IMG/VR virus record: IMGVR_UViG_3300046004_001116
Span: 1 to 64,000 of that record
DNA: 64,000 nt
Strand: one strand, 5' to 3'
Source: a virus
The notes beneath the pieces are model-generated. The model was not told where the DNA came from, made no database searches, and was given only the letters and a program-made list of their open reading frames with translations. Shown here piece after piece: positions 30,716 to 55,583 of the stretch (positions within the stretch are counted from its first letter, which is position 1; every line of letters begins with the position of its first letter). Position numbers and translations under genes: made by a program.

Positions 30716-30790
30716 ACGAGATTAGCTCAGTTGGTTCAGAGCAACTCTTTTACACGGAGAAGGTCACAGGTTCGAATCCTGTATCTCGTA
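30716..30790 (+). tRNA. trnV: tRNA-Val(TAC)
   Basis: Cloverleaf, loop TTTACAC. Confidence 0.9.
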
Positions 30791-30993
30791 CTAATGAATT
30801 AAACGGTCTAAGGATTAGGACGCTGGCGTAAGGCACCGGCTGAAACGCCGACCATCGTTGGAGAGATTCTACTCTCTAATTCATAACACACTGCAGTGAT
30901 TGCCGGCCACACGCATCGGTTCTTAACGGGAAATCGTTCTCGTCGTTAGGTGAACAGACCGGACAAATTCCTTAGGTGGTGCTAGGGTCAACT

Positions 30994-31067
30994 GCTGCTA
31001 TAGACGAATTGGTTAAGTCGTCGCCCTTTCAAGGCGGAGGTTGCGGGTTCAAGTCCCGTTGGCAGTA
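30994..31067 (+). tRNA. trnE: tRNA-Glu(TTC)
   Basis: Cloverleaf, loop CTTTCAA. Confidence 0.9.
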
Positions 31068-31073
31068 CAACAT

Positions 31074-31148
31074 GAGCGCTGAAGCACAATCGGACGTGCA
31101 CCTGGCATACGGCCAGTAGGATATAGGTTCGAATCCTATCTTTGCTCC
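31074..31148 (+). tRNA. Atypical/pseudo tRNA, loop CATACGG (A33)
   Basis: D and T arms intact, weak acceptor, no U33. Confidence 0.5.
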
Positions 31149-31156
31149 AAATACTT

Positions 31157-31230
31157 TCTCCTGTCGTCTAGTCGGCTCAGGACGCTGCCCTTTCACGGCG
31201 GTAACGCGGGTTCGAATCCCGTCGGGAGAA
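31157..31230 (+). tRNA. trnE: tRNA-Glu(TTC)
   Basis: Cloverleaf, loop CTTTCAC. Confidence 0.9.
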
Positions 31231-31332
31231 CAACACTACCGAATGGTGTAATCTATGTGTTAAAAGAACAGCGCTGGCTGAGACCAGAGTTCCACCGTAA
31301 TTGTAGTAATCGGTGATTCGGTAAACAATATT

Positions 31333-31404
31333 GGTTTCGTAGCTCAGAGGCAGAGCGGCACCCTGTTAAGGTGAGGGTCGGGATTTCGATATTCCCCGAG
31401 ACCG
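31333..31404 (+). tRNA. trnN: tRNA-Asn(GTT)
   Basis: Cloverleaf, loop CTGTTAA. Confidence 0.88.
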
Positions 31405-31415
31405 CAATTAAAAAA

Positions 31416-31586
31416 TAGCTTTCAGCCAAAGGTGGCGGGCAATACTTTTACTCAGTTATGTATGGACTGTCTTAGACGTAAGGTGGAAAATCATAAAGGT
31501 TTAAATAGGATATGACTCTGATTGTCGACGAGATGAGAGTATCTGATAAGTATCGCTGGGTGGGTTCGATTCCCATTGTGAGCTCA
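31416..31586 (+). ncRNA. tRNA-like RNA with ~100-nt extended arm replacing the anticodon arm
   Basis: AGCTTTCA/TGTGAGCT stem, D-like arm, T arm gtgggTTCGATTcccat. Confidence 0.55.
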
Positions 31587-31590
31587 AGAT

Positions 31591-31664
31591 TCCTCAGTAG
31601 CTCAGTTGGTTAGAGCGTCGGACTGTTAATCCGTAGGTCCTAGGTTCGAGTCCTAGCTGGGGAG
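31591..31664 (+). tRNA. trnN: tRNA-Asn(GTT)
   Basis: Cloverleaf. Confidence 0.92.
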
Positions 31665-31822
31665 CAAAAGTTGATTACTTTAGGTTACAGGAATTACCAG
31701 AAACCTGTCGACATACTCTTGGGCGTAAGGCAAGAGCAGATTTTGAACCAGGTTTAATCTGTAATGTAAACCTACTCGTATTTAACAATTATACGTTAAG
31801 TCTAATCAACTAAATTGTAACT

Positions 31823-31908
31823 GGCCTTGTAGCTCAATTGGATTGCATTACGCTTAGAGCCACCGACTTTTAATCGGTAGGTTGGGGGTTCGAGTCCCTC
31901 CAGGGTCA
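31823..31908 (+). tRNA. trnK: tRNA-Lys(TTT) with enlarged D loop
   Basis: Loop CTTTTAA; ~12 extra nt in the D loop. Confidence 0.8.
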
Positions 31909-32006
31909 CAAAGGAATAATTACTCTGGCGGTGGTGCGGGTAAGCGCCGGGAAGTAACGCCCGGTTGGCAAAGTAAATTATTCAGAGGTAAGGAAAAGAC
32001 TAAACT

Positions 32007-32079
32007 GGGGCTATGGTATAGATGGCTAACACACTTGCCTTGCACGCAGGAATCCCGAGTTCGAGGCTCGGTAGCTCCA
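32007..32079 (+). tRNA. trnA: tRNA-Ala(TGC)
   Basis: G3-U70, loop CTTGCAC. Confidence 0.92.
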
Positions 32080-32336
32080 CGGGAGTTTTTGAAACGGCCT
32101 ACTCTTTGAGGCACGTGATATTTGTACTTTAACAAAATTCACAGTATGGCAAGAGGGTTTTTGGAAGCGGCTTTAAGGTATAAGCAATGTATTTGACCAG
32201 AACAAAATCATAGTATAACTATCTTCTGTCACGTTAGCAGACCGGGTATGGCTACGCACAGTTTGGAAGTAATATGTGTATTAAACAAAACTTTCACCGC
32301 GGCGAAACGTTTCCCAAAACAAAGTAGTCGCAAGAA

Positions 32337-32421
32337 GGGAGTACGCCGGAGTTGGAGAGCCGGAGCGGTCTGTAACACCGTTGGCATTACGCCTGAGTAG
32401 GTTCGAATCCTACTACTTTCA
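32337..32421 (+). tRNA. trnY: tRNA-Tyr(GTA)
   Basis: Long variable arm, loop CTGTAAC. Confidence 0.9.
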
Positions 32422-32424
32422 CAA

Positions 32425-32503
32425 AAATTGAAGCGGAGGTAAGAGTTACATCAACTTTTTATTGGAAAAAACAAACAAACACTCTTCCTAATATTCTCAA
32501 TTT
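32425..32503 (+). ncRNA. Minimal Y-RNA-like gene
   Basis: GAAGCGG...GAGTTACATC / CTC...TAATATTCTC stem shared with the RNAs upstream of Ro60. Confidence 0.7.
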
Positions 32504-32506
32504 CAT

Positions 32507-32577
32507 TGTCCGATGGTGTAACGGTAACACTACTGTTTTTGGTGCAGTCATTCAAGGTTCGAATCCTTGTCGGATAA
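32507..32577 (+). tRNA. trnQ: tRNA-Gln(TTG)
   Basis: Cloverleaf. Confidence 0.9.
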
Positions 32578-32586
32578 CTATTATAT

Positions 32587-32659
32587 TGGAATATGGTATA
32601 ATGGCTCATTACACGTGGTTTTGGTCCACGCAATCAAGGTTCGATTCCTTGTATTCCAA
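32587..32659 (+). tRNA. trnQ: tRNA-Gln(TTG)
   Basis: Cloverleaf. Confidence 0.9.
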
Positions 32660-32664
32660 CAATT

Positions 32665-32739
32665 CGCGTAGCGATCCACAGAGAGAGGTTACCCGCCTTG
32701 GACGCGGGGTTATTGCAGGTTCGAGTCCTGTCTACGCGA
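32665..32739 (+). tRNA. trnP: tRNA-Pro(TGG), divergent D arm
   Basis: Loop CTTGGAC; perfect acceptor and T arm. Confidence 0.8.
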
Positions 32740-32750
32740 CAAATTTTTAA

Positions 32751-32823
32751 CGGGGTGTAGATCAGTTGGTAGATCGCGTGCTTTGGGAGCATGAGGCCGC
32801 AGGTTCGAGTCCTGTCACCCCGA
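32751..32823 (+). tRNA. trnP: tRNA-Pro(TGG)
   Basis: Cloverleaf. Confidence 0.92.
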
Positions 32824-32889
32824 CGAGACGAGACTGTTACTAATTCATAGGGGCCCATTCACGCAAGTGTCTGCATAGAATTAGAATTT

Positions 32890-32963
32890 AGGTGGTTAGC
32901 TCAACTGGTTAGAGCACTCGCCTGATACGCGAGAGGTTATGAGTTCGACTCTCATATCACCTA
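32890..32963 (+). tRNA. trnI: tRNA-Ile(GAT)
   Basis: Cloverleaf. Confidence 0.92.
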
Positions 32964-33031
32964 CTAAAAAATATAAAAGTCAAATGAAACAAATTTTAGT
33001 CAACTCCTCATAGGTTAGCATTGCTAAACTT

Positions 33032-33262
33032 ATGACTCAGAAATTGAGAATTTGGAGAGTAGTTCCCGTTCGTAACGGCGTTCAGGCTCCCACTTTTTTT
33101 GTAGAAACTACAGAAGAAGGACGCGACAAGGCAGAAGTATCTGCTTTAAAACAAGCAAGACAAAGGTCAGGCTTGAGTAAATTTGATTGTTGGAATTTCA
33201 ATCTTATCAAAACAGAATTAAGGTTAGATAAGTTTGGAAGATATGTAAAGTATCACCAATAA
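33032..33262 (+). CDS. Small hypothetical protein within the tRNA array
   Basis: 76-aa ORF filling an inter-tRNA gap. Confidence 0.6.
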   Translation: MTQKLRIWRVVPVRNGVQAPTFFVETTEEGRDKAEVSALKQARQRSGLSKFDCWNFNLIKTELRLDKFGRYVKYHQ

Positions 33263-33308
33263 TAAACTGGGCAGTTTTCGGTCTGCGTAATAATTAAAAC
33301 CGAAATTT

Positions 33309-33380
33309 GGTGATGTAGCTCAGCGGCAGAGCACCCGGCTCATATCCGGAAGGTCGAGGTCTCGGAATCCTCCATCGCTA
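33309..33380 (+). tRNA. trnM: tRNA-Met(CAT), atypical T loop
   Basis: Loop CTCATAT; T loop CTCGGAA. Confidence 0.75.
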
Positions 33381-33384
33381 CAAA

Positions 33385-33443
33385 TGTATACTTTAATATA
33401 CAATATGGTCTAAAACGGCTATAATTGTATATTAAAGTATACA
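33385..33443. repeat. 20-bp perfect inverted repeat
   Basis: tgtatactttaatatacaat / attgtatattaaagtataca. Confidence 0.85.
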
Positions 33444-33452
33444 AACAATAAA

Positions 33453-33594
33453 TTCCAGAAGCGGCAAAGAGAGTTACTTCGTCTGTTAAACGAGAGGTCG
33501 TAGGTTCGAGTCCTACTGCGTGTACCTTGATGGGAAACGTATAGCTCAGTTGGTTAGAGCGCTAAAAATCTCTCTCTTAATTATTCTCTGGCAA
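33453..33594 (+). ncRNA. YrlA-like Y RNA with permuted tRNA-like domain
   Basis: Shared terminal stem enclosing GTT hairpin, T arm, loop-closed acceptor, then D arm. Confidence 0.8.
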
Positions 33595-33597
33595 TTT

Positions 33598-33671
33598 GAC
33601 TCGGTAGCTCAGTTGGTAGTAGCACCTCACTTTTAATGAGGGGGTCGTGGGTTCGAGTCCCACCCGGGTCA
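33598..33671 (+). tRNA. trnK: tRNA-Lys(TTT)
   Basis: Cloverleaf. Confidence 0.92.
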
Positions 33672-33685
33672 CAAATATTAATCAT

Positions 33686-33763
33686 GGGAGCAGCTGGGAT
33701 AGCGCGGGTGGTGTCGAGCCACCTTTCACCGGTAGCTTGAGGTTCGAGTCCTCTTTGTTCCCC
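33686..33763 (+). tRNA. Atypical tRNA-like gene, 8-bp acceptor, loop TGTCGAG (G33)
   Basis: T arm tgaggTTCGAGTcctct; reduced D arm. Confidence 0.5.
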
Positions 33764-33777
33764 TAAATGTTATCAGT

Positions 33778-34029
33778 ATGACACGAGAACAGAAAATAGC
33801 AAAAAGGAAACTTCGTGCTTCTATCCACAGAGAAAAAAGAAACGAAAAGTACTTTAAAAAAATACGAGCGGCAAATGATATAGGCGGGTGGGTTCCACTT
33901 TATGCCGTTGATAGCCGTGGATACGTTTCAGGTTCATGGCCTGACTCAAGTAGCCCTACAGGATATTCACAAAGATGTTCTTATGATGCCTGGGGAACTT
34001 GTCAAAGTCCATGCAACGGAGACTGTTAA
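33778..34029 (+). CDS. Small basic/Cys-containing hypothetical protein
   Basis: 83-aa ORF ending CQSPCNGDC. Confidence 0.6.
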   Translation: MTREQKIAKRKLRASIHREKRNEKYFKKIRAANDIGGWVPLYAVDSRGYVSGSWPDSSSPTGYSQRCSYDAWGTCQSPCNGDC

Positions 34030-34033
34030 AAAT

Positions 34034-34092
34034 TGGGAGGTCGCATAGTTGGTTAGTGCTCATCTTCGGTGGTTCGAGTCCACCCCTCCCCA
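34034..34092 (+). ncRNA. tRNA-like RNA lacking the anticodon arm
   Basis: Acceptor, D and T arms intact; 8-nt linker tcatcttc. Confidence 0.7.
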
Positions 34093-34281
34093 CTAAGATT
34101 TAATCTGCTAAACGCAAAATGGTATGTTGCCGCCGATAACTACGGAAACACAAGCAAGGAAGGAGGTCACTTGCCGCATACAGGAAACACAGATCCGTTC
34201 ATTTTGTTAGTAAGGTATCGGGTACATTCGGTTGTACTTGGGTATTCACCAATCTGTGCCGGTGACAGATTAAATTTTTAT

Positions 34282-34355
34282 GGCCATGTAACTCAGTTGG
34301 TTAGAGTGCCCGCCTCATAAGCGGAGAGTCCTTGGTTCGAGTCCAAGCTTGGCCA
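34282..34355 (+). tRNA. tRNA-CAT (elongator Met or Ile2)
   Basis: Loop CTCATAA. Confidence 0.85.
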
Positions 34356-34545
34356 CATGAAAACGCAAGTAACGGTATTATTCCGAAGCGATGATAAGAA
34401 TTACAATTGGTCATCAGTATTATCTAAAGAAGTAGGATATGAATTTGTTAAACTACAGAAAATAGAGAACACGGATAATCCAAGATGGCCAAAATGGTCT
34501 TTTATCATTACTTACAAAAAAAGTAAATAAAAATGCAAAAGTGTA

Positions 34546-34574
34546 AAACTAACCGTTTTCACGTGTATATATAA
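34546..34574 (+). promoter_or_regulatory. RAACT-N17-TATATAA promoter driving leader 2
   Basis: Matches the 29862 element. Confidence 0.65.
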
Positions 34575-34596
34575 TAAACAACAAATAAATTAAACA

Positions 34597-34704
34597 ATGC
34601 AAACACAATCATTACATACAAGATCGTTTACGTCAAGCTGGAACTTATGTTTCGGACTAGGGCGCGATTGTGACATAGATCTGGAGGATCTGACTACTAT
34701 CTAA
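34597..34704 (+). CDS. Leader peptide of tRNA operon 2 (MQTQSLHTRSFTSSWNLCFGLGRDCDIDLEDLTTI)
   Basis: A-rich start; TCTGGAG at 34680-34686. Confidence 0.8.
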   Translation: MQTQSLHTRSFTSSWNLCFGLGRDCDIDLEDLTTI

Positions 34705-34729
34705 TGTAATTTGCATACAAGATATTTTC

Positions 34730-34762
34730 AAAGCTCCAGAATTAATTTTCTGGAGCTTTTTT
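34730..34762 (+). terminator. Attenuator terminator 2 (identical hairpin to terminator 1)
   Basis: aaagctccagaa-ttaatt-ttctggagctttttt. Confidence 0.85.
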
Positions 34763-34774
34763 ATTGCGATTAAT

Positions 34775-34830
34775 TTAACAAAACTTTAACATATTAAATT
34801 TGCTTTACATCTTTTAATTGGTTAATTTTA
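34775..34830 (+). promoter_or_regulatory. Bacteroidota sigma-A type promoter with TTAACA boxes
   Basis: TTTG 34799, TAATTTTA 34823. Confidence 0.7.
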
Positions 34831-34887
34831 TACTGTAATTAAAAACAACCATTAATTGCATTCTTTGACATACTGAAAACTAAAATT

Positions 34888-34960
34888 GGTGCTGTGGCAG
34901 ATCAGGTGATTGCGGCGGACTGAAAATCCGTAGGAGTGGGTTCGATACCCACCGGCACCA
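34888..34960 (+). tRNA. trnF: tRNA-Phe(GAA)
   Basis: Cloverleaf. Confidence 0.9.
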
Positions 34961-35075
34961 CACAAACTTATTTAAGGTTCGACCCTCACCCATTTTGCGC
35001 TCAATTCGCATTTACTTTGGAAGACTGGTTCTAGAGGGAGCTACCGACTGATAAGTGGCCGCACACGCGGCAAAT

Positions 35076-35150
35076 GCCTGAGTGGGTAAACTGGTAAAGC
35101 CGCTTGACTTAGGATCAAGAGTTCTGTGGGTTCGACTCCCACCTCGGGTA
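35076..35150 (+). tRNA. trnL: tRNA-Leu(TAG), short variable arm
   Basis: Loop CTTAGGA; A73. Confidence 0.85.
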
Positions 35151-35234
35151 CAAATTATTTAGTTCCATGCATAAGCTCAAACAGCTCCCTGAAATTACAT
35201 GGTTTAAAGGAGCTTAAACTAAATAATAAATTTT

Positions 35235-35311
35235 GGTGCCGCAGCATATCGGCGTATGATGCTCGCCTGTCACGTGGGAGATTGCGGGTTCGAATCCCGT
35301 CGGTACCGCCA
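35235..35311 (+). tRNA. trnD: tRNA-Asp(GTC), CCA encoded
   Basis: Cloverleaf, weak D arm. Confidence 0.88.
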
Positions 35312-35351
35312 TCTGGTTAAGATTCCAGAGAACAATCAAAAATCTACAAAC

Positions 35352-35425
35352 ACCCTCATGGTCCAGTTGGAGTGGATGTCGCCCTGTCACGGCGAAGATC
35401 GCGGGTTCGAGTCCCGCTGGGGGTG
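35352..35425 (+). tRNA. trnD: tRNA-Asp(GTC)
   Basis: Cloverleaf. Confidence 0.9.
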
Positions 35426-35531
35426 CAAAAAACTGGGGTAGAAAAATCTTAGGACGGCAATCCGTAGATGTAATACGATGGTTACTGCACAAAGAGAAAA
35501 GTAATTTGCCGATGAAATTCACTTAGCAGTT

Positions 35532-35619
35532 TTCCTTTTGATGAAATTGGCAAACATGGCTCGCGCGAAGCGAGTGCTCAGGGTTTACTCTGATAAAGGT
35601 TCGAGTCCTTTAAGGGAAA
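35532..35619 (+). tRNA. Atypical class II tRNA, loop CGCGAAG (CGA anticodon, G33, Leu-like body)
   Basis: Full cloverleaf with long variable arm, A73. Confidence 0.6.
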
Positions 35620-35644
35620 CAAATTTCAGGAGTAATTAACCTGA

Positions 35645-35781
35645 AGCTGAATGGTTCGAAACATTCGATTGGTCATGGTGTATTGGGCACGGTAGAACGG
35701 AGTAATCGTACGCAGAGCGTTAGGCTCTCAACGGCGGTGAAAGGGAAAACAGGTTAAAGGTTCGAATCCTTAGGATCAGCT
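35645..35781 (+). ncRNA. tRNA-like RNA with two T-loop hairpins
   Basis: AGCTGA/TCAGCT closure; gttcgaa motifs at ~35654 and ~35760; D-like arm. Confidence 0.45.
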
Positions 35782-35852
35782 TGCGTTAAAGTGTAAAGGT
35801 TGCATGGGACTCTCATAAGGTCTACGGGGTGGTTCGAGTCCACGCTACGCTA
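35782..35852 (+). tRNA. Degenerate tRNA-CAT
   Basis: Loop CTCATAA, mismatched acceptor stem. Confidence 0.5.
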
Positions 35853-35939
35853 CAAAATTCTAAGTGTGTCTTGGTACGCTCTGACAACCGTCAACGACAA
35901 GGTCTCGGTAGGCAAAACGCGTTTGATCCTACCCATTCT

Positions 35940-36013
35940 GCAGTAGTAGCTCAGTTGGTAGAGCGCTGCCTTGCCAAGGCAGAGGTTCGCGGGTTCGAAT
36001 CCCGTCTACTGCT
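35940..36013 (+). tRNA. trnG: tRNA-Gly(GCC)
   Basis: Cloverleaf. Confidence 0.92.
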
Positions 36014-36020
36014 CAAATAT

Positions 36021-36094
36021 GCGGGTATGGTGTTTAACGGTTAGCACGTGAGCCTTCCAAGTTTGAAGTTTCGGTTCGAATCCGAATATCCGCT
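36021..36094 (+). tRNA. trnG: tRNA-Gly(TCC)
   Basis: Cloverleaf. Confidence 0.9.
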
Positions 36095-36099
36095 CAACT

Positions 36100-36173
36100 G
36101 GTCTTGTAGCTCAACTGGATAGAGCATTGGTTTTCTAAACCAACGGTTATGGGTTCGATTCCCGTCAAGATCA
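36100..36173 (+). tRNA. trnR: tRNA-Arg(TCT)
   Basis: Cloverleaf. Confidence 0.92.
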
Positions 36174-36180
36174 CAAACAT

Positions 36181-36251
36181 ACGCCTATGGTGCAACGGTA
36201 GCATGACGGTCTCCAAAACCGTTGATAAAGGTTCGAATCCTTTTGGGCGTG
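36181..36251 (+). tRNA. trnW: tRNA-Trp(CCA)
   Basis: Cloverleaf. Confidence 0.92.
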
Positions 36252-36260
36252 CAAATATAA

Positions 36261-36347
36261 GGAGAGGTGCCAGAGTGGTCGATTGGACCGGTCTTGAAAA
36301 CCGGAGAGCGTGAAAGCGCTCCGTGGGTTCGAATCCCACCCTCTCTT
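36261..36347 (+). tRNA. trnS: tRNA-Ser(TGA)
   Basis: Class II cloverleaf. Confidence 0.92.
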
Positions 36348-36350
36348 CAA

Positions 36351-36498
36351 AATTAGAAGCGGTACATTGAGATACTTCAATATCCAAAACTGCCATTTGT
36401 TGGTTCGAGTCCAACCTGAGGTGTTAATAGCACCTCGGTGGTGAAATGGTAAACACAGCAGTCCCAAAACAAGACGCTCATGTAAACATTCTCTAATT
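36351..36498 (+). ncRNA. Second YrlA-like Y RNA with permuted tRNA-like domain
   Basis: TTAGAAGCGG-TACATTGAG / CTCATGTA-AACATTCTCTAA stem; T arm, loop-closed acceptor, D arm. Confidence 0.8.
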
Positions 36499-36503
36499 GA
36501 ATT

Positions 36504-36577
36504 GCTGGCGACGCATGAATGGTGGTGCACCGGATTTGTAACCCGGACTAGAGTCGGTTCGATCCCGACCGTCAGCT
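36504..36577 (+). tRNA. trnT: tRNA-Thr(TGT)
   Basis: Cloverleaf. Confidence 0.85.
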
Positions 36578-36583
36578 CAAAAT

Positions 36584-36654
36584 GGCCCTATGACCGAGCG
36601 GTTAGGTGCAGGTCTGCAAAATCTGTTAGGTTGGTTCGACTCCAACTGGTGCCT
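36584..36654 (+). tRNA. trnC: tRNA-Cys(GCA)
   Basis: Cloverleaf, U73. Confidence 0.9.
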
Positions 36655-36657
36655 CGA

Positions 36658-36852
36658 GAATAATCAGAGGACTCATCGCTGGAAACAGAGGAAGTTCGCG
36701 ACAACTAAACCTAACATGGGAGATGTAAAAATCGTTCGTACCACGGAAGTTGCAAGTTAAACAGTTTGAGGGTGTCGGTTTCCCTATGAGAACGGGTTAA
36801 TGCAAAGTCAAATGATGGGATAAAACAGAAACGCGGCTACGCTCAATTATTC
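36658..36852 (+). ncRNA. rnpB: Minimal RNase P RNA
   Basis: GAGGAAGTTCGCG (CR-I) and AACAGAAACGCGGCTA (CR-V) forming P4; P1 GAATAAT/ATTATTC. Confidence 0.8.
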
Positions 36853-36857
36853 AAATT

Positions 36858-36939
36858 GCCCAGGTGGAGAAATTGGTAGACTCGCCAGCCTAAGGAGCTG
36901 GTGCCGCAAGGCGTGAGGGTTCGAGTCCCTCCTTGGGTA
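36858..36939 (+). tRNA. trnL: tRNA-Leu(AAG)
   Basis: Class II cloverleaf, loop CTAAGGA. Confidence 0.88.
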
Positions 36940-36951
36940 CAAAATTAAAAT

Positions 36952-37041
36952 GGGCCGATTGGTGTAACTGGGAATGAATACCAGCTTGGGTTAACACGAA
37001 CCTGTAGGTTCGGCTGAGAGTTCGAATCTCTCATCGGTCCC
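36952..37041 (+). ncRNA. Atypical tRNA-like gene with 8-bp acceptor and no clear anticodon
   Basis: GGGCCGAT/ATCGGTCC; T arm gagagTTCGAATctctc. Confidence 0.55.
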
Positions 37042-37157
37042 GGTATCTCCCAAGGGAGAAAACTCTGGTTGGTGGTCTGACCTTATAGACCGCAATAAGA
37101 CTGTCAAGGTAGGACGTCAGTTATAGAGAGGTGAGCCATACCTATTCCTCTCAACAT

Positions 37158-37232
37158 GGTGATTGTAGCTCAGTTGGTTAGAGCGCTGGTTTGTGGTACC
37201 AGAGGTCGCGGGTTCGACCCCCGTCATTCACC
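37158..37232 (+). tRNA. trnH: tRNA-His(GTG)
   Basis: G-1/C73, loop TTGTGGT. Confidence 0.92.
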
Positions 37233-37247
37233 CTAAAAAGAATACTT

Positions 37248-37397
37248 ATGAAAGGCATTGAATTAATTCCAATTGGGCCTGTTTCTGAAGAAGCAAAGGC
37301 TAGGTTAAAGAAACGATCTGAAAGGGATAAAGCAAGATTAGACCAAATGGTTAAAGACGCTAAAGAAGGCAAGTATGATCATATAATAAACAAATAG
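37248..37397 (+). CDS. Small hypothetical protein
   Basis: ATG 37248, MKGIELIPIG... Confidence 0.5.
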   Translation: MKGIELIPIGPVSEEAKARLKKRSERDKARLDQMVKDAKEGKYDHIINK

Positions 37398-37402
37398 AAA
37401 GC

Positions 37403-37624
37403 ATGAAAGCGGGAGCTAAAACAACAGACAAAGATTTTAATAACTTAATTACATACTTGGAAAGATTCAAAGGTGCTAATATTACAATCACTGTTGATAA
37501 AAATCCTTCGCCTGAAAAGATTGCTTATATAAAAGAAAGAATAAAGATAAGTGAGCAACGTGCTCAAAACGGCCGGGTGGTGGAACTGGTAGACACGCTG
37601 GGTTTAAGCCCCAGTGGGCAGTAA
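37403..37624 (+). CDS. Small hypothetical protein whose 3' end overlaps tRNA-Leu
   Basis: ORF reads into the tRNA at 37571. Confidence 0.45.
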   Translation: MKAGAKTTDKDFNNLITYLERFKGANITITVDKNPSPEKIAYIKERIKISEQRAQNGRVVELVDTLGLSPSGQ

Positions 37625-37656
37625 TGCCCGTGCGGGTTCGAATCCCGCTCTGGTCA
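37571..37656 (+). tRNA. trnL: tRNA-Leu(TAA)
   Basis: Class II cloverleaf. Confidence 0.92.
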
Positions 37657-37660
37657 CAAA

Positions 37661-37746
37661 GGAGAGGTAAGCATAGTGGTACTGCAGCGGATTGCTAATC
37701 CGTTCGGCGTTTATTCGTCGCGTGGGTTCGATCCCCACTCTCTCCG
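37661..37746 (+). tRNA. trnS: tRNA-Ser(GCT)
   Basis: Class II cloverleaf. Confidence 0.9.
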
Positions 37747-37765
37747 CAATATATAATAAAACAAT

Positions 37766-37837
37766 GGCCTGTTAGTTTAACGGATAGAACTCTGGTTTAC
37801 GGCATCAGCGATGGGGGTTCGAGTCCCTCACGGGTCA
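37766..37837 (+). tRNA. trnR: tRNA-Arg(ACG)
   Basis: Loop TTACGGC. Confidence 0.88.
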
Positions 37838-37861
37838 CTAATCAAATAAAAAACAAATGTC

Positions 37862-38314
37862 ATGGTATTTAGAAAGCTCGCAGATAGGCAGGAAGTTGAC
37901 TTATTACCATACGCACATGATTTCCTAACGGAACATCCAGAGCATAAACTCTACGTGGGTACGGATAGTCAAAACATCGGAAAAACTACAGTTTATGCAA
38001 CAGTTATTGTGTTTCATAATAACAACGGTGGTGGTCACGTTTTATATTCTAAGGTAACAGTACCTAGAATCGCGGACAGATGGACCAGATTGTGGAAAGA
38101 AGTAGAAATGTCAGTTCAAGCAGCTGACCTTTTAAAAGAAGGAGATTTTCATCCGGTAGATTTTATTGACTTGGATTTAAACCCAGACCCAAGATACAAA
38201 TCGAATATGGTCTTAAGATCAGCTGTTGGTTATGTTGAGAGTTTTGGTTACAAAGCAAGAGTAAAACCGAATGCGACTATTGCATCTTGTGTTGCAGATA
38301 GTATCTTCCGTTAA
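37862..38314 (+). CDS. RNase H-like YkuK (DUF458) family protein
   Basis: YVGTDSQ, RLWKEV..S, KPNA.IAS.VAD. Confidence 0.8.
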   Translation: MVFRKLADRQEVDLLPYAHDFLTEHPEHKLYVGTDSQNIGKTTVYATVIVFHNNNGGGHVLYSKVTVPRIADRWTRLWKEVEMSVQAADLLKEGDFHPVDFIDLDLNPDPRYKSNMVLRSAVGYVESFGYKARVKPNATIASCVADSIFR

Positions 38315-38407
38315 GAACTATTATATAAGAAGTGAATATATAATCTATAATACTTTGGGGTGTAAAAGCCCCAAATATTTTTACTAACTAAAATAAAACA
38401 AAAAAAC

Positions 38408-38764
38408 ATGAAGTAGGTACAAACAAAATTCTCCGAAACAAAATTAATCGTTGTCACTAGATCTGATATTTCTCCGGGCTATCAAGTAGTCCAATCAACA
38501 CACTCAATCGCTGATTTCTCATATCAGCATCCTGAAGCTTTCCAACAGTGGAAGAATGATTCAAACTCAATCATTTGCCTTTCAGTGCCTTCAGAAGAGA
38601 AACTTCTCAAACTATTTAATAAATTCGAAAACCGTATACCGGCTACAGCGTTCTATGAACCAGACGTATCCGAATGGACTTCCGTGTGCTTACTTGGCAC
38701 CCCAGAGATTCGTAAAGCACTTTCGCATTTACCGCTATCATTAAAAAACTCCGATGTATTATGA
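38408..38764 (+). CDS. Peptidyl-tRNA hydrolase Pth2-like protein with in-frame TAG at codon 3 (not in ORF track)
   Basis: ATG AAG TAG then open frame ...KLIVVTRSDISPGYQVVQSTHS...IICLSV...FYEPD...TSVCL...LSHLPL. Confidence 0.7.
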
Positions 38765-39186
38765 AAGGAATCTTAAAAGTTAGAAGCTTTGATGCGCTTA
38801 AAAAATTAAGTACAAAAAGAGCTTACGGTAAACACAAAAGATTACATGAAAGAATGAGACATATTCATACGTCTATTCTATTTCTTGAAGAACACAAATT
38901 ACTTACTGTGGATATGCTATGGGATATGTTATGTGTTTACATTAGCTATCAAAGAGAAGCAGGTAAACTTTATTATGTTTACGCTTACGCTAGACCAGAT
39001 AGTTGGTATAAGACAAACAATCGAATATTTACCGAATTTACACCAGAACATGTTGATTCGTATATTAATCATATACTTACAAATGCTTATAGCCATGTAA
39101 TGAATCTGCCGTATGAACTACATAAAAAATACAGAGACATTATCATCGGGAGAGAAAAAGAACTAAAATTAAAAAACAACAATTAA
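38761..39186 (+). CDS. Hypothetical protein
   Basis: ATGA overlap with the Pth2-like gene. Confidence 0.6.
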   Translation: MKGILKVRSFDALKKLSTKRAYGKHKRLHERMRHIHTSILFLEEHKLLTVDMLWDMLCVYISYQREAGKLYYVYAYARPDSWYKTNNRIFTEFTPEHVDSYINHILTNAYSHVMNLPYELHKKYRDIIIGREKELKLKNNN

Positions 39187-39541: not shown

Positions 39542-39820
39542 ATGAACAAAGTAATTAAATTCTCAGCAGATTGGTGTGGACCATGCAAAGTATACAAACC
39601 AAACTATATAAAATTTGCTGAACAAGTTAGTGGAGATGGAAAGGACATTGATGTGCTTGATCTTGATGTAGATAAAAATTCAGATGAGGCAAGTAAATAC
39701 GGAGTAAGATCTATCCCACTTACACTTTTTATTAAAGATGGTGAAGTTGTTGATAAAATCAGCGGTGTAATACCAACAAGTGCATTACTTGACAAATATG
39801 CAGCAGTTTATCAGAATTAA
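39542..39820 (+). CDS. Thioredoxin
   Basis: WCGPC. Confidence 0.92.
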   Translation: MNKVIKFSADWCGPCKVYKPNYIKFAEQVSGDGKDIDVLDLDVDKNSDEASKYGVRSIPLTLFIKDGEVVDKISGVIPTSALLDKYAAVYQN

Positions 39821-47935: not shown

Positions 47936-48683
47936 CTTTCAAGAGTTCTTAACAGAGAACGAAGTATTTGAAGGAACCAATAGAGTAGATAAAAGACTAT
48001 CTGACGAAGTACAAGAAGAGTACAACAAATTAAAAATCGAATCTTTAAAGAAACAAATTGACTTGTGTAAAAAACATAAAGTTAAGTGCTTTATAGATTA
48101 TGGTTCACTATTAGGTTTATACCGAGACAAAAAACTTATCAAGCACGATAACGATACTGATGTTGCTATCTTTGGTGAAACAGTAACAAAAGAATTTCTT
48201 GAAGATGTAGAGAAAGAATTTGTTTTACAACGTCCAACAAAAATGAGTGCTTTAATTAATAAGTTATTTGTAAGTGATGAAAATGCTGATGATTATCACC
48301 AGATTCCTTACGTAGGTCTTGCGCTTAAAGGTAAAGATGGTAAAGAAATTCAGGTTACCGCAATGTCTAAAAAGAAAATTGGCGTTCCTGGAGATTTCTT
48401 TTTCTATTATCCATACGGTGATGGGAAACGTATTACAAGATATCCAGGATGGGAAGTTCAATTAACTGATGCAAAGCATTTTGATAAACTTGGAACTTTA
48501 AAACATGATGGGTATGATTTTCCAATTCCTGGAGATCCTGAAGTCTATTTAGAATATCTTTATGGTAAAGATTGGAAAACACCAAAGTCAAATTCAGGTC
48601 TAAACGATGATTGCGAATTTATATCCAGAGCAAAAGGTAAAGCATACTGCTATTCCCATAAAGAAGGTAAGTACAAGAAGTAA
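47916..48683 (+). CDS. LicD-family phospho-transferase
   Basis: YGSLLGLYRD..LIKHDNDTDV; PEVYLEYLYGKDWKTP. Confidence 0.85.
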   Translation: MPNFVFSFQEFLTENEVFEGTNRVDKRLSDEVQEEYNKLKIESLKKQIDLCKKHKVKCFIDYGSLLGLYRDKKLIKHDNDTDVAIFGETVTKEFLEDVEKEFVLQRPTKMSALINKLFVSDENADDYHQIPYVGLALKGKDGKEIQVTAMSKKKIGVPGDFFFYYPYGDGKRITRYPGWEVQLTDAKHFDKLGTLKHDGYDFPIPGDPEVYLEYLYGKDWKTPKSNSGLNDDCEFISRAKGKAYCYSHKEGKYKK

Positions 48684-52225: not shown

Positions 52226-53620
52226 ATGAAAACAGAAAATTTAACAGTTGCAGTTTATCCTATTGGATCTTCAATGAAGTTCAGTAAGGAAAAACTTAAA
52301 AGATCTGATGGATCATCTGAGTATTTTAAATTAATCTGGGCGCTTGTTCGTAACGAATCCATTAGTTCAGTTTGGTTAGTTCAGCGTAGTGATTGGAAAC
52401 GTTTATCTTTTGAAGAAAAGGCAGAAATTGACCCAAGAGGTGTTCTGCGTGATATTCATTCAGAATTTGCCGTTGAACTACCACCTGGTAGACGTCAAGG
52501 TCCTGATGGAAATCTTATTCCTCATACAAAAGAAGAACAAGAAAAATACATGGATCTTTGGAACAAAGTAAAAGATCTTCCACAACCTGACTTTGGGTTT
52601 GGATTTGCTTCACAAGGATTAACTATGGTAAATATTCCTGGAATAGTGCCAAGTATTAAAGATCCTTCAAGAATGACAGGTGCATTGGATATGACTCTTA
52701 TTTATGGAGCTCCACTTGTACACTACTTAAATATGTCAAACATCCCTTGGTTTATGATTATGACGGATCCTCGTTACATCAAGAAAAACCAAAAATGGCG
52801 TGATATGGTTAACGGTCCTAGAGAATGTATTGCACAATACAATTCTGACATTAACTTTACTCACTTTGACACTTACCCTGATTTAACAAGTGGAAACGAA
52901 ATCACTGAGAAACTTATTCTTACGTACTCCGGTATTGAGAAAATGAATCTTATTGGTGAAACTGTTGTACCACCTGATACTGAGCGTGATGTTAAATTCT
53001 CAATCGTTGCAATGCAATCTGCTTATGGTAAAACTACAACTGTAGATTATCGTTTAGAAGCATTAAAGAAATGGATCTTAACTCAACCTAATTCTAAAGA
53101 TTGTGAAATCTTTGGTAAATGGGACGAGCGCTTCATTAAACAATACCCACAGTTTAAAGGTTATAAGGCTCCCGAGGAAATTGATGAAATCTTTAAAAGA
53201 ACTCGATACACACTTATCATACCTATTCGTCCTGACTGGGTTACAAGTAAATATGCAGAAATGCTTCGCGTAGGTGTACTTCCTTTTTATCACCCTGATT
53301 ACGATACACAATTTTCAACTATTCCTAAAGATCATTATCTTAGAGTAAAAACTCCTAAAGAAATGTTTGATAAGATTGAAGATCTTGAAGCAAATCCAGA
53401 GAAACGAATTGCTTTGGTTAAACAATTACAATTAATGTTCTTACGGGGTGTTCGTCAAGGTTCGTTTATTGCTGATGTGGTTAATCCTTTCTTAGAGCGT
53501 GCAGGTGTTCCTGTCGTTGTAGGTAAAGGCTATTCTGATGAATTACTTCGTACACCACAAATGTCAGATTATAATAAACCAACTAAAGCACCGGTGATTA
53601 ATTCTGCAGCATTATTTTAG
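52226..53620 (+). CDS. Putative GT-B glycosyltransferase (beta-glucosyltransferase-like)
   Basis: MTDPRY, IFGKW, TSKYAEM..GVLPFYHPDYD. Confidence 0.6.
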   Translation: MKTENLTVAVYPIGSSMKFSKEKLKRSDGSSEYFKLIWALVRNESISSVWLVQRSDWKRLSFEEKAEIDPRGVLRDIHSEFAVELPPGRRQGPDGNLIPHTKEEQEKYMDLWNKVKDLPQPDFGFGFASQGLTMVNIPGIVPSIKDPSRMTGALDMTLIYGAPLVHYLNMSNIPWFMIMTDPRYIKKNQKWRDMVNGPRECIAQYNSDINFTHFDTYPDLTSGNEITEKLILTYSGIEKMNLIGETVVPPDTERDVKFSIVAMQSAYGKTTTVDYRLEALKKWILTQPNSKDCEIFGKWDERFIKQYPQFKGYKAPEEIDEIFKRTRYTLIIPIRPDWVTSKYAEMLRVGVLPFYHPDYDTQFSTIPKDHYLRVKTPKEMFDKIEDLEANPEKRIALVKQLQLMFLRGVRQGSFIADVVNPFLERAGVPVVVGKGYSDELLRTPQMSDYNKPTKAPVINSAALF

Positions 53621-54368: not shown

Positions 54369-55583
54369 ATGACAAAAGACGGAAAAATAAAGTACGGTGT
54401 CGCAGTTCCATTAATTGGTGGAATGGCCGTTGCCAATAAAAATTCTACTGGGGAAGATCCAAGTTTCATTGTGTCTTTTCCTGCGTTTGCTGGTAACGAT
54501 GCCCACTGTGTGAACAGATTTAAAGACGTGCCATATTTGCTAGCAGATGAAGAAACTAATGAGTTAGGAGATTATGAAAGTGCACTTTTTGATGATGTAG
54601 ATTTTGTATCTGCCGTTTGTCCTTGTGCAGGTTTATCAATGCTTAACTCAAGTACAACAGGTTCAGCAAAAGCAAGAGGTGGAGACGCCGCTCAAAATGA
54701 CTGGATGTACAAAAGTGCTCGTCTTGTTCTTGGTACTGTTAAACCAAAAGTATTCTGGGGCGAAAACGCGCCAGGACTATACAGTGCTATGGGTGAAAAG
54801 GTTGTTGAGAATTTAAAAGTAATTGGTAAAGAATTTGGTTATTCTTTCTCACTTGTTAAAACTGATACATTCTTACATGGTATTCCTCAACACAGAATGA
54901 GATCGTTTTACTTTTTCTGGAAAGACAGTGAAGCACCAATCTTAGGTTACACAAAACGTGAGGCTCCAATGTTAAAAGATTACCTTGATATGATTCCTGA
55001 AGGTGTTACAGAAATGGACAGACCGTTTGGACTTGGTGATATTTCTGAAAATGGATGGTTCTTGTTTGCAAAAACTCAAGGATGGGATACGCAAAAATTA
55101 CTAGAGAGTCATTATAAAACTATGTTCCACTTTGTTTCTGGTGAAGGTTTAGTTCAGGAAGCACTTGATTGGGCAGAAGCTAATGAAAATCTACAAATGA
55201 AAAAGTTTATTGCACACACGCAAAAGAAACTCGCAGATAATAAAGGTTGGTGGGACGGAACTCCACTTATCTTTAATGAAGCAACCAATGCTATCATTGC
55301 AAAGAACTCAGCAATTATACGACCTGGGCATGAAAGAGGTATTACAATTCGTGAAGCAATGTGGTTAATGGGTCTTCCTCATGATTTTGAATTGGTAGGT
55401 GGTTCTTTTAATCATATCTGTCAGAATGTTCCTGTAACAACTGCAACCGATTGGACAAATGAAATCGTAAGATTCATTAAAGGAGAGATAACAGAATTTG
55501 GTGGTGATTTTGTAAAACAGAATAACATTAACCAAAGAATTGACTATGCTGCTAAAACTATGACCTCAAAAAAATTATTCTAA
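54369..55583 (+). CDS. C5 cytosine DNA methyltransferase-like protein
   Basis: PCAGLS (IV), ENAP (VI), PQHRMR (VIII), QNVP (X); divergent motif I PLIGG. Confidence 0.75.
   Translation: MTKDGKIKYGVAVPLIGGMAVANKNSTGEDPSFIVSFPAFAGNDAHCVNRFKDVPYLLADEETNELGDYESALFDDVDFVSAVCPCAGLSMLNSSTTGSAKARGGDAAQNDWMYKSARLVLGTVKPKVFWGENAPGLYSAMGEKVVENLKVIGKEFGYSFSLVKTDTFLHGIPQHRMRSFYFFWKDSEAPILGYTKREAPMLKDYLDMIPEGVTEMDRPFGLGDISENGWFLFAKTQGWDTQKLLESHYKTMFHFVSGEGLVQEALDWAEANENLQMKKFIAHTQKKLADNKGWWDGTPLIFNEATNAIIAKNSAIIRPGHERGITIREAMWLMGLPHDFELVGGSFNHICQNVPVTTATDWTNEIVRFIKGEITEFGGDFVKQNNINQRIDYAAKTMTSKKLF

Follow-up and report, generated by a model that had tools for sequence, protein, structure and literature searches.

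Layout of the locus

The gene described here comes from a giant lake phage. It lies in the first 64 kb (hereafter the window) of an 85,919-base viral contig (G000) that is estimated to be about 30% complete. The genome is A+T-rich, and nearly all genes in the window lie on one strand. The coordinates of the gene and its surroundings are collected in Table 1. Upstream, a terminator-like hairpin is placed after an RNaseH-like gene (PF04308, 86.6 bits in Pfam) and sets the PTH2 gene apart from both this neighbour and a block of tRNA genes. The PTH2 gene opens with a methionine and a lysine codon, meets TAG at its third position and then runs on in the same frame (sense codons 38417-38761; stop codon 38762-38764). 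The initial annotation had described ATG AAG TAG, 115 open codons and an ATGA overlap with the following gene, and sequence and translation bear out this arrangement.

Table 1. Features at and around the amber-gated PTH2 gene, in window coordinates.
Feature	Position	Strand	Description or basis
Block of 31 tRNA genes	30716..37838	+	Ends 570 bases upstream of the gate; none with anticodon CTA
Terminator-like hairpin and T run	38354..38375	+	8-pair stem with 4 G-C pairs, then TATTTTTACT
A-rich leader, no Shine-Dalgarno sequence	38383..38407	+	Like this phage's other gene starts
Start ATG and AAG (Lys)	38408..38413	+	Two sense codons ahead of the gate; sequence, translation
In-frame amber codon TAG (gate)	38414..38416	+	Followed by GTA (+4 purine); sequence and homologue comparison
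115-codon ORF and TGA	38417..38764	+	Predicted hydrolase of divergent PTH2 fold; Pfam, AlphaFold2, Foldseek
Next gene, 141 aa	38761..39186	+	Without family match; ATG shared with the PTH2 stop in an ATGA overlap

The leader is typical of this phage, in which the 4-mer core of a Shine-Dalgarno sequence precedes just 2 of 71 long ORFs and the share of A at upstream positions is 40-68%. AAA is the most frequent second codon among its gene starts, and the gated gene likewise has lysine (AAG) in second place. As had also been claimed, no ATG, GTG or TTG lies in frame ahead of the conserved core: the first one past the TAG is GTG 38585, codon 57 after the TAG and well within the domain. The codons that lead from the TAG to the conserved SETKL motif are GTA CAA ACA AAA TTC TCC, none of which is one base from ATG.

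An Rfam search over 38300-38800 gave no match, and no near-identical DNA was found in the phage collection. Two genes downstream of PTH2, the window contains a 92-aa ORF with a WCGPC motif (39542-39820, + strand) that looks thioredoxin-like by eye.

A predicted PTH2 fold of a divergent phage subfamily

The product had been annotated as Pth2-like. In agreement, the protein scores 24.6 bits against the Pfam family PTH2 (PF01981), above the cut-off of 23, and 23.9 bits in the genome search. The level of the NCBIfam equivalogs NF003314 and TIGR00283 is missed, with 23.3 bits versus 126 and 21.7 versus 82, respectively, and the PHROG assignment is phrog_1866. A profile of 42 homologues, compared with the PDB, retrieves 2zv3 at an E value of 3.5e-7. 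The AlphaFold2 model of the 115-codon ORF has a pLDDT of 93.8, and its leading Foldseek matches are the Pth2 structures 2zv3, 1wn2, 1q7s (Bit1), 3erj and 1xty, with TM scores of 0.70-0.74. All 12 best PDB matches belong to the Pth2 family, including the unannotated homologue 1rlk.

The active site of Pth2 comprises a conserved basic loop (GKGK) and an acidic DAG motif. When aligned to 2zv3 with HMMER, the phage protein places PGYQ opposite the archaeal KGKM, and FFEPD opposite IIRDAG. The PGYQ is invariant, and an acidic residue is retained as the invariant E81. On the basis of profile and model, the gated gene is predicted to encode a PTH2 fold of a divergent phage subfamily. Given this combination of fold, divergence and PGYQ loop, the substrate of the phage protein may deviate in detail from the archaeal one.

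Conservation of the early amber codon

In tblastn searches of the phage collection, the best matches came from uncultured huge phages of 460-735 kb, and 205 mycobacteriophage records matched farther away; a pattern scan of 185,579 species genomes found no cellular relatives. The first four relatives examined all begin with ATG, one or two codons and an in-frame TAG. Altogether, 107 loci were compared, drawing on 23 viral-contig loci and the best 80 of 125 metagenome loci; two of the 107 lie at contig edges, and 83 distinct start regions were left. In 81 of these 83, L079 among them, we find the same gate of ATG, one to seven sense codons and an in-frame TAG. Between ATG and TAG there is one sense codon in 37 starts, two in 26, three in eight and four to seven in nine. 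The two ungated starts are ordinary ones and belong to the sequences that diverge most (42% and 32% identity). Two more distant huge-phage genomes, LR756500 and LR756501, share the gate. Neither TAA nor TGA ever takes the place of its TAG, even though 75-88% of the long ORFs in these genomes end in TAA.

With one stop, at codon 3, in a gene that is intact apart from it, the window copy could also be a pseudogene, or show an assembly error or a private nonsense mutation. This reading is refuted by the recurrence of the gate in starts from independent assemblies, by synonymous changes around it and by a downstream ORF that is intact and under purifying selection; its probability is negligible. 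The idea that homologues might carry a sense codon at this position, which had been raised with the initial annotation, fails on the same comparison, and a chance origin is excluded because of the conservation. We thus interpret the early TAG, from the aligned homologues, as a conserved gate and not as an error or defect.

The codon that follows the TAG is restricted as well. It is ATT in 69 of the 81 gates, GTA in eight, AAC in two (one of them L079), GTT in one and ACA in one, so that the next base is a purine every time (81/81); the +4 base is T in 31 of 75 real TAG stops. Codons GTA and GTT occur in at least three separate places of the tree, two of which are nested among ATT lineages with strong support. 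In LR756501, a second in-frame TAG lies inside the conserved PTH2 domain and is followed by ATT TAY. A stimulatory RNA structure 3' of the gate was not apparent, as local folds had a mean z of -0.66, with 7 of 79 below -2 and no shared hairpin.

Two observations were made beside this comparison. In Bxz1, Cane17 and IkeLoa (L336, L340 and L341), the annotated GTG start of pth comes directly after an in-frame ATG TAG; the three are near-identical at the pth start and hence count as one observation. At c94511-94921 and 83042-83464 (-), LR756500 (W05) contains a tmRNA gene and, in addition to its gated divergent PTH2 gene, a canonical one (118.5 bits).

A gated partner gene

Many relatives carry, about 0-1 kb downstream of PTH2, a gene for a protein of about 190 aa with a weak HD-domain match (20.8 bits), which belongs to phrog_14850. 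Its model (pLDDT 96.1) resembles a tRNA nucleotidyltransferase-type 'tRNA processing enzyme' (TMq about 0.6, E value 5e-3; E value by sequence 0.0024). The same module, here ATG, one to eight codons and TAG, is present in 40 of 41 distinct HD starts; the codon after the TAG is ATT in 35 of the 40 gated starts and CTA in one copy. In the HD model, the residues from the TAG to the first ATG form helix 1, with a pLDDT of 94 over the first ten residues. In L053/L060, PTH2 and HD are fused into one 304-codon frame (L053 2474-3412) with a single gate, whose ATG lies 53 bases beyond the end of a tRNA(CUA) gene. The HD gene was not found in the contig of this phage.

Module scans of the relatives W01, W02 and W03 found it only on PTH2, on HD and on one orphan ORF. 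The latter, a 229-codon frame of W02 (LR756502; L203:10590-11276, - strand), begins ATG AAA AAC AAT TAG ATT, is without Pfam or PHROG match and has no homologue in the other genomes. Counted genome-wide in G000 and W01, ATG-x-TAG modules are not enriched over TAA or TGA controls. A module match at 54592, out of frame within a larger gene, was rejected.

TAG is an ordinary stop elsewhere

Among ORFs of at least 150 aa, TAG ends 4 of 58 in G000, 32 of 459 in W01 and 39 of 399 in W03 (7-10%). The four in G000 include the TAG at 53618-53620, which ends an ORF directly before ATG 53622; that TAG works as a stop elsewhere had been stated correctly in the initial annotation. After TAG, back-up stops occur no more often than they do after TAA. 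In-frame TAG affects one gene in the 86-kb contig, and two or three per genome in the relatives scanned. Since TAG is an ordinary stop elsewhere, the gating is gene-specific and not part of a genome-wide recoding.

Recoding of TAG throughout the genome (code 15), as in crAss-like and Lak phages, is nevertheless how public gene callers treat these genes, which they read with TAG as Q. Two database proteins are the exact TAG-to-Q reading of L084 and L126, and 57 of 115 database clusters (P0001-P0115) begin M-x(0-8)-Q-[IVNT]. Against this reading stand the long ORFs that end in TAG, the lack of excess back-up stops and the small number of genes concerned: passages on recoded phages report many in-frame stops in 26-71% of genes, with structural and lysis genes predominating (Borges et al., bioRxiv 10.1101/2021.08.26.457843). 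We regard genome-wide recoding as very improbable. Many other database entries of the family begin at an internal GTG, TTG or ATG and are shortened. As gene callers either truncate gated genes or apply code 15 to the whole contig, the family is mis-annotated in public databases.

In LR756501 (W04), two regions at 103-124 kb and 400-422 kb contain long frames in which 'TAG TTC' is repeated tens of times. These multi-TAG frames are probably repeat proteins in the wrong frame and were not counted as recoding.

Amber-suppressor tRNA genes beside the gate

ARAGORN identified 49 tRNAs on the flanks of 103 viral and metagenome loci. The commonest anticodon beside gated PTH2 is CTA, with 12 of the 49 flank tRNAs at 10 loci; TTA accounts for two. 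In five distinct loci (L053/L060, L069, L078, L082 and L140) the tRNA(CUA) lies 27-53 bases upstream of the gate ATG. Downstream of the gene, LR756501 has two tandem tRNA(CUA) genes at a distance of 2.1 kb, LR756500 has one about 0.8 kb from its gated PTH2, and the mycobacteriophage IkeLoa has one 251 bases from pth. The 15 distinct tRNA(CUA) sequences are unlike one another, and crude similarity assigned an amino-acid identity to none of them.

None of the 32 tRNAs in the window and the whole 85,919-base contig has the anticodon CTA, which confirms the earlier statement on the window. The near-cognate tRNAs of this phage (Gln, Tyr, Lys, Glu and Trp) have ordinary anticodon stems of 5-6 bp; suppression by tRNAs with 4-bp anticodon stems was considered and dropped, as none of the near-cognate tRNAs has one. 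A tRNA(CUA) was likewise not found in G001, a 190-kb relative with no tRNAs, or in W01 and W02, both taken as complete genomes. A crude hairpin scan of the contig revealed no hidden CTA arm; it regained only two of the four ARAGORN suppressors in W04, W05 and IkeLoa, and its negatives are therefore weak.

Several other tRNA and RF-1-domain genes were recorded in the relatives. ARAGORN reports tRNA-like genes with 6- or 8-base anticodon loops in W01 (407364-407437 and 419836-419923), W02 (435101), W03 (c136122, c281045, c402360 and c461088) and W04 (c204243, c228902 and c229021). One tRNA of W03 has the loop ATTCTAAC, readable as UCU, CUA or UCUA; this arm is also a common tRNA-Arg(UCU) arm, seen in at least 120 viral-contig stretches, which makes the tRNA ambiguous as a suppressor. 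A tRNA of the ochre suppressor type, with the anticodon TTA, adjoins an ungated distant PTH2 homologue in L058 (3092-3167; L059 has it in the same region). ORFs of 174-180 aa with an RF-1 domain occur in W01 (48139-48459, - strand), W02 (107309-107629, - strand) and W03 (568928-569242, + strand); their size is that of an ArfB-like rescue factor, not of a full release factor.

Decoding of the UAG versus restart behind it

The conserved arrangement could be explained by a mini-ORF, ATG-x-TAG, from which terminating ribosomes reinitiate at the adjacent codon, mostly AUU, so that the TAG is never decoded. ATT stands directly after the TAG in most starts of both gene families, and its third base is fixed: all 69 Ile cases are ATT, whereas ATT, ATC and ATA all occur in six Ile columns conserved among the same 80 genes, and ATT makes up 293 of 668 Ile codons elsewhere in these genes. 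An AUU start codon would also explain this constraint. Moreover, the genes have no Shine-Dalgarno sequence, and a nearby terminating ribosome could therefore help a weak start. The ATG TAG of Bixzunavirus, followed by an annotated, canonical GTG start, fits restart too and counts against decoding. A usable start at or next to the upstream stop, present as ATT in most relatives, is however absent from the window, whose copy shares GTA with seven other distinct ones and has no near-cognate start before SETKL. A downstream non-canonical start, the other escape considered in the initial annotation, thus fails for the window copy, and this favours decoding over restart. The codons AAC, ACA and CTA also follow the TAG in some copies. 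Coupling would work with any stop, of which TAA is the most usual, yet only TAG occurs. Restart at the internal TAG-ATT of LR756501 would give a truncated, useless protein, and the adjacent tRNA(CUA) genes would be left unexplained. The scattered positions of the GTA and GTT copies in the tree, and helix 1 of the HD model, which is formed ahead of the first ATG, likewise speak for decoding. Restart is quite unlikely in our view.

Because ATT also follows the internal TAG of LR756501, and GTA takes its place in the window, the fixed ATT is more plausibly a 3' context that promotes decoding. This is in line with passages of a reporter study according to which a purine at +4 favours amber suppression (PMC6266110). 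Ribosome hopping was rejected, since only some copies have matching take-off and landing codons, and so was quadruplet reading of UAGA or another use of the +1 frame, which in the window closes within a few codons by eye.

A further alternative needs no suppressor. TAG is read by RF1 only, and the gate might sense failing termination or recycling, either by near-cognate readthrough when RF1 is limiting or by in-frame resumption after failed recycling. It is conserved in G000, G001, W01 and W02, where no tRNA(CUA) was found; that the window's own clade keeps the gate nonetheless also speaks against decoding by a suppressor. Ribosomes without RRF are described, in passages of one paper, as resuming in frame one codon past the stop, independently of a start codon (PMC9955659), and fMet-Lys dipeptidyl-tRNA is described in passages of another as dissociating fast (PMC10192219). 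Since G000 is about 30% complete, however, a suppressor may exist elsewhere in the genome, and in relatives the gate is linked to tRNA(CUA). Resumption after failed recycling could work with other stops as well as with TAG. As to readthrough, passages of the E. coli reporter study report negligible near-cognate reading of UAG even without RF1 (PMC6266110). Early miscoded peptidyl-tRNAs tend to drop off, according to passages of PMC10192219, and near-cognate readthrough at codon 3 would hence be inefficient. We regard a sensor that works without suppressor as unlikely.

The initial annotation had proposed a switch by which the hydrolase is made when RF1 limitation lets termination fail. Of this proposal, the conserved amber gate on a PTH2 gene stands. 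The trigger without a suppressor is not supported in the form proposed, as the gates of relatives adjoin phage tRNA(CUA) genes, which points to suppressor-dependent decoding. RF1 limitation is possible for this phage itself, given that its 86 kb and two complete relatives yielded no tRNA(CUA).

Discussion

The reading that best accounts for the conserved gate, with a probability of about 0.68 in our estimate from the sequence data, is that PTH2 is made only when the UAG is decoded. Translation would start at ATG 38408 and meet the amber codon at position 3. Ribosomes that decode UAG as an amino acid would continue in frame to the full predicted tRNA hydrolase of PTH2 fold; otherwise, RF1 would release a dipeptide and no enzyme would result. 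The gate appears to be an old, selected feature of the phage PTH2 lineage and of its partner HD gene. In many relatives a phage-encoded tRNA(CUA) adjoins the gated gene, which would tie production of the enzyme to the moment at which an active suppressor tRNA is present. In this phage, the decoder may be a tRNA(CUA) in the other 70% of the genome, or near-cognate readthrough under RF1 limitation.

As for the purpose of such a gate, stop suppression may create extra stalled or dropped-off peptidyl-tRNA, which the PTH2 and HD pair would clear; alternatively, the enzyme may act on the suppressor tRNA itself. Tentatively, and at well below even odds, PTH2, HD and the amber-suppressor tRNA could form a self-regulating cassette, in which the enzyme needs the suppressor for its synthesis and has this tRNA or its by-products as target, deacylating the tRNA or freeing it from peptides.

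Early stops and unusual starts are known from other genes of the translation apparatus. The gene for RF2, prfB, contains an early in-frame UGA and is autoregulated through a +1 frameshift, with the stop read by its own product. The gated PTH2 gene resembles it in having an early in-frame stop in a translation-factor gene, whose synthesis would depend on termination at that stop; it differs in that the frame is kept behind the stop and the product, PTH2, is no release factor. The gene infC has an AUU start codon and is subject to autoregulation by IF3. A conserved ATT with a fixed third base, where translation of the main ORF would begin, is reminiscent of infC, but the window copy has GTA, and ATT also follows the internal TAG in LR756501. 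Minigenes of the lambda bar type are free-standing and toxic; their two- or three-codon ORFs yield dipeptidyl-tRNA, a substrate of peptidyl-tRNA hydrolase. Met-Lys-stop is a sequence of the same kind (for drop-off, see passages of PMC10192219; also PMC2490762). Unlike the lambda minigenes, the mini-ORF described here is in frame, is joined directly to a hydrolase gene and ends in TAG only.

Two neighbouring findings are already known, namely PTH2 in jumbo phages and suppressor-based recoding in phages. PTH2 genes beside tRNA and RNA-repair genes have been described in jumbo phages and proposed to clear peptidyl-tRNA in ribosome rescue (Iyer, Anantharaman, Krishnan, Burroughs and Aravind 2021, PMC7824862, in passages on these genes). 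The likeness to our locus lies in a PTH2-type hydrolase of a large phage near tRNA genes; a term search of the paper gave no 'suppressor', and these passages mention neither an amber codon nor a link to tRNA(CUA). Recoded crAss-like and Lak phages share with the gated phages an in-frame TAG, a phage tRNA(CUA) and a standard-code host, and passages of that work propose that, before the suppressor has been produced, the stop delays or gates expression (bioRxiv 10.1101/2021.08.26.457843). In contrast to them, the gated phages have a single TAG at codon 2-9 in one to three of about 600 genes, always in the same two tRNA-related families; TAG stays a normal stop, and in several genomes no suppressor was found. 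Our literature search, with supplementary gene tables outside its scope, turned up no description of a pth gene gated by an amber codon or of a cassette of PTH2 and tRNA(CUA).

If UAG decoding indeed opens the gate, the gene would represent a natural, gene-specific amber switch, with a single stop at the gene start that is preserved in phages of wide divergence and goes together with suppressor tRNA genes. It would join phage suppressor tRNAs and phage peptidyl-tRNA hydrolases, which so far have been handled apart, and it suggests a route to stop-codon suppression in a standard-code host with the damage limited. Should the cassette prove true, suppression would be held at a level that the phage tolerates, and lineages that lose the tRNA, perhaps including this phage, would keep the gate as a sensor of failed termination at UAG.
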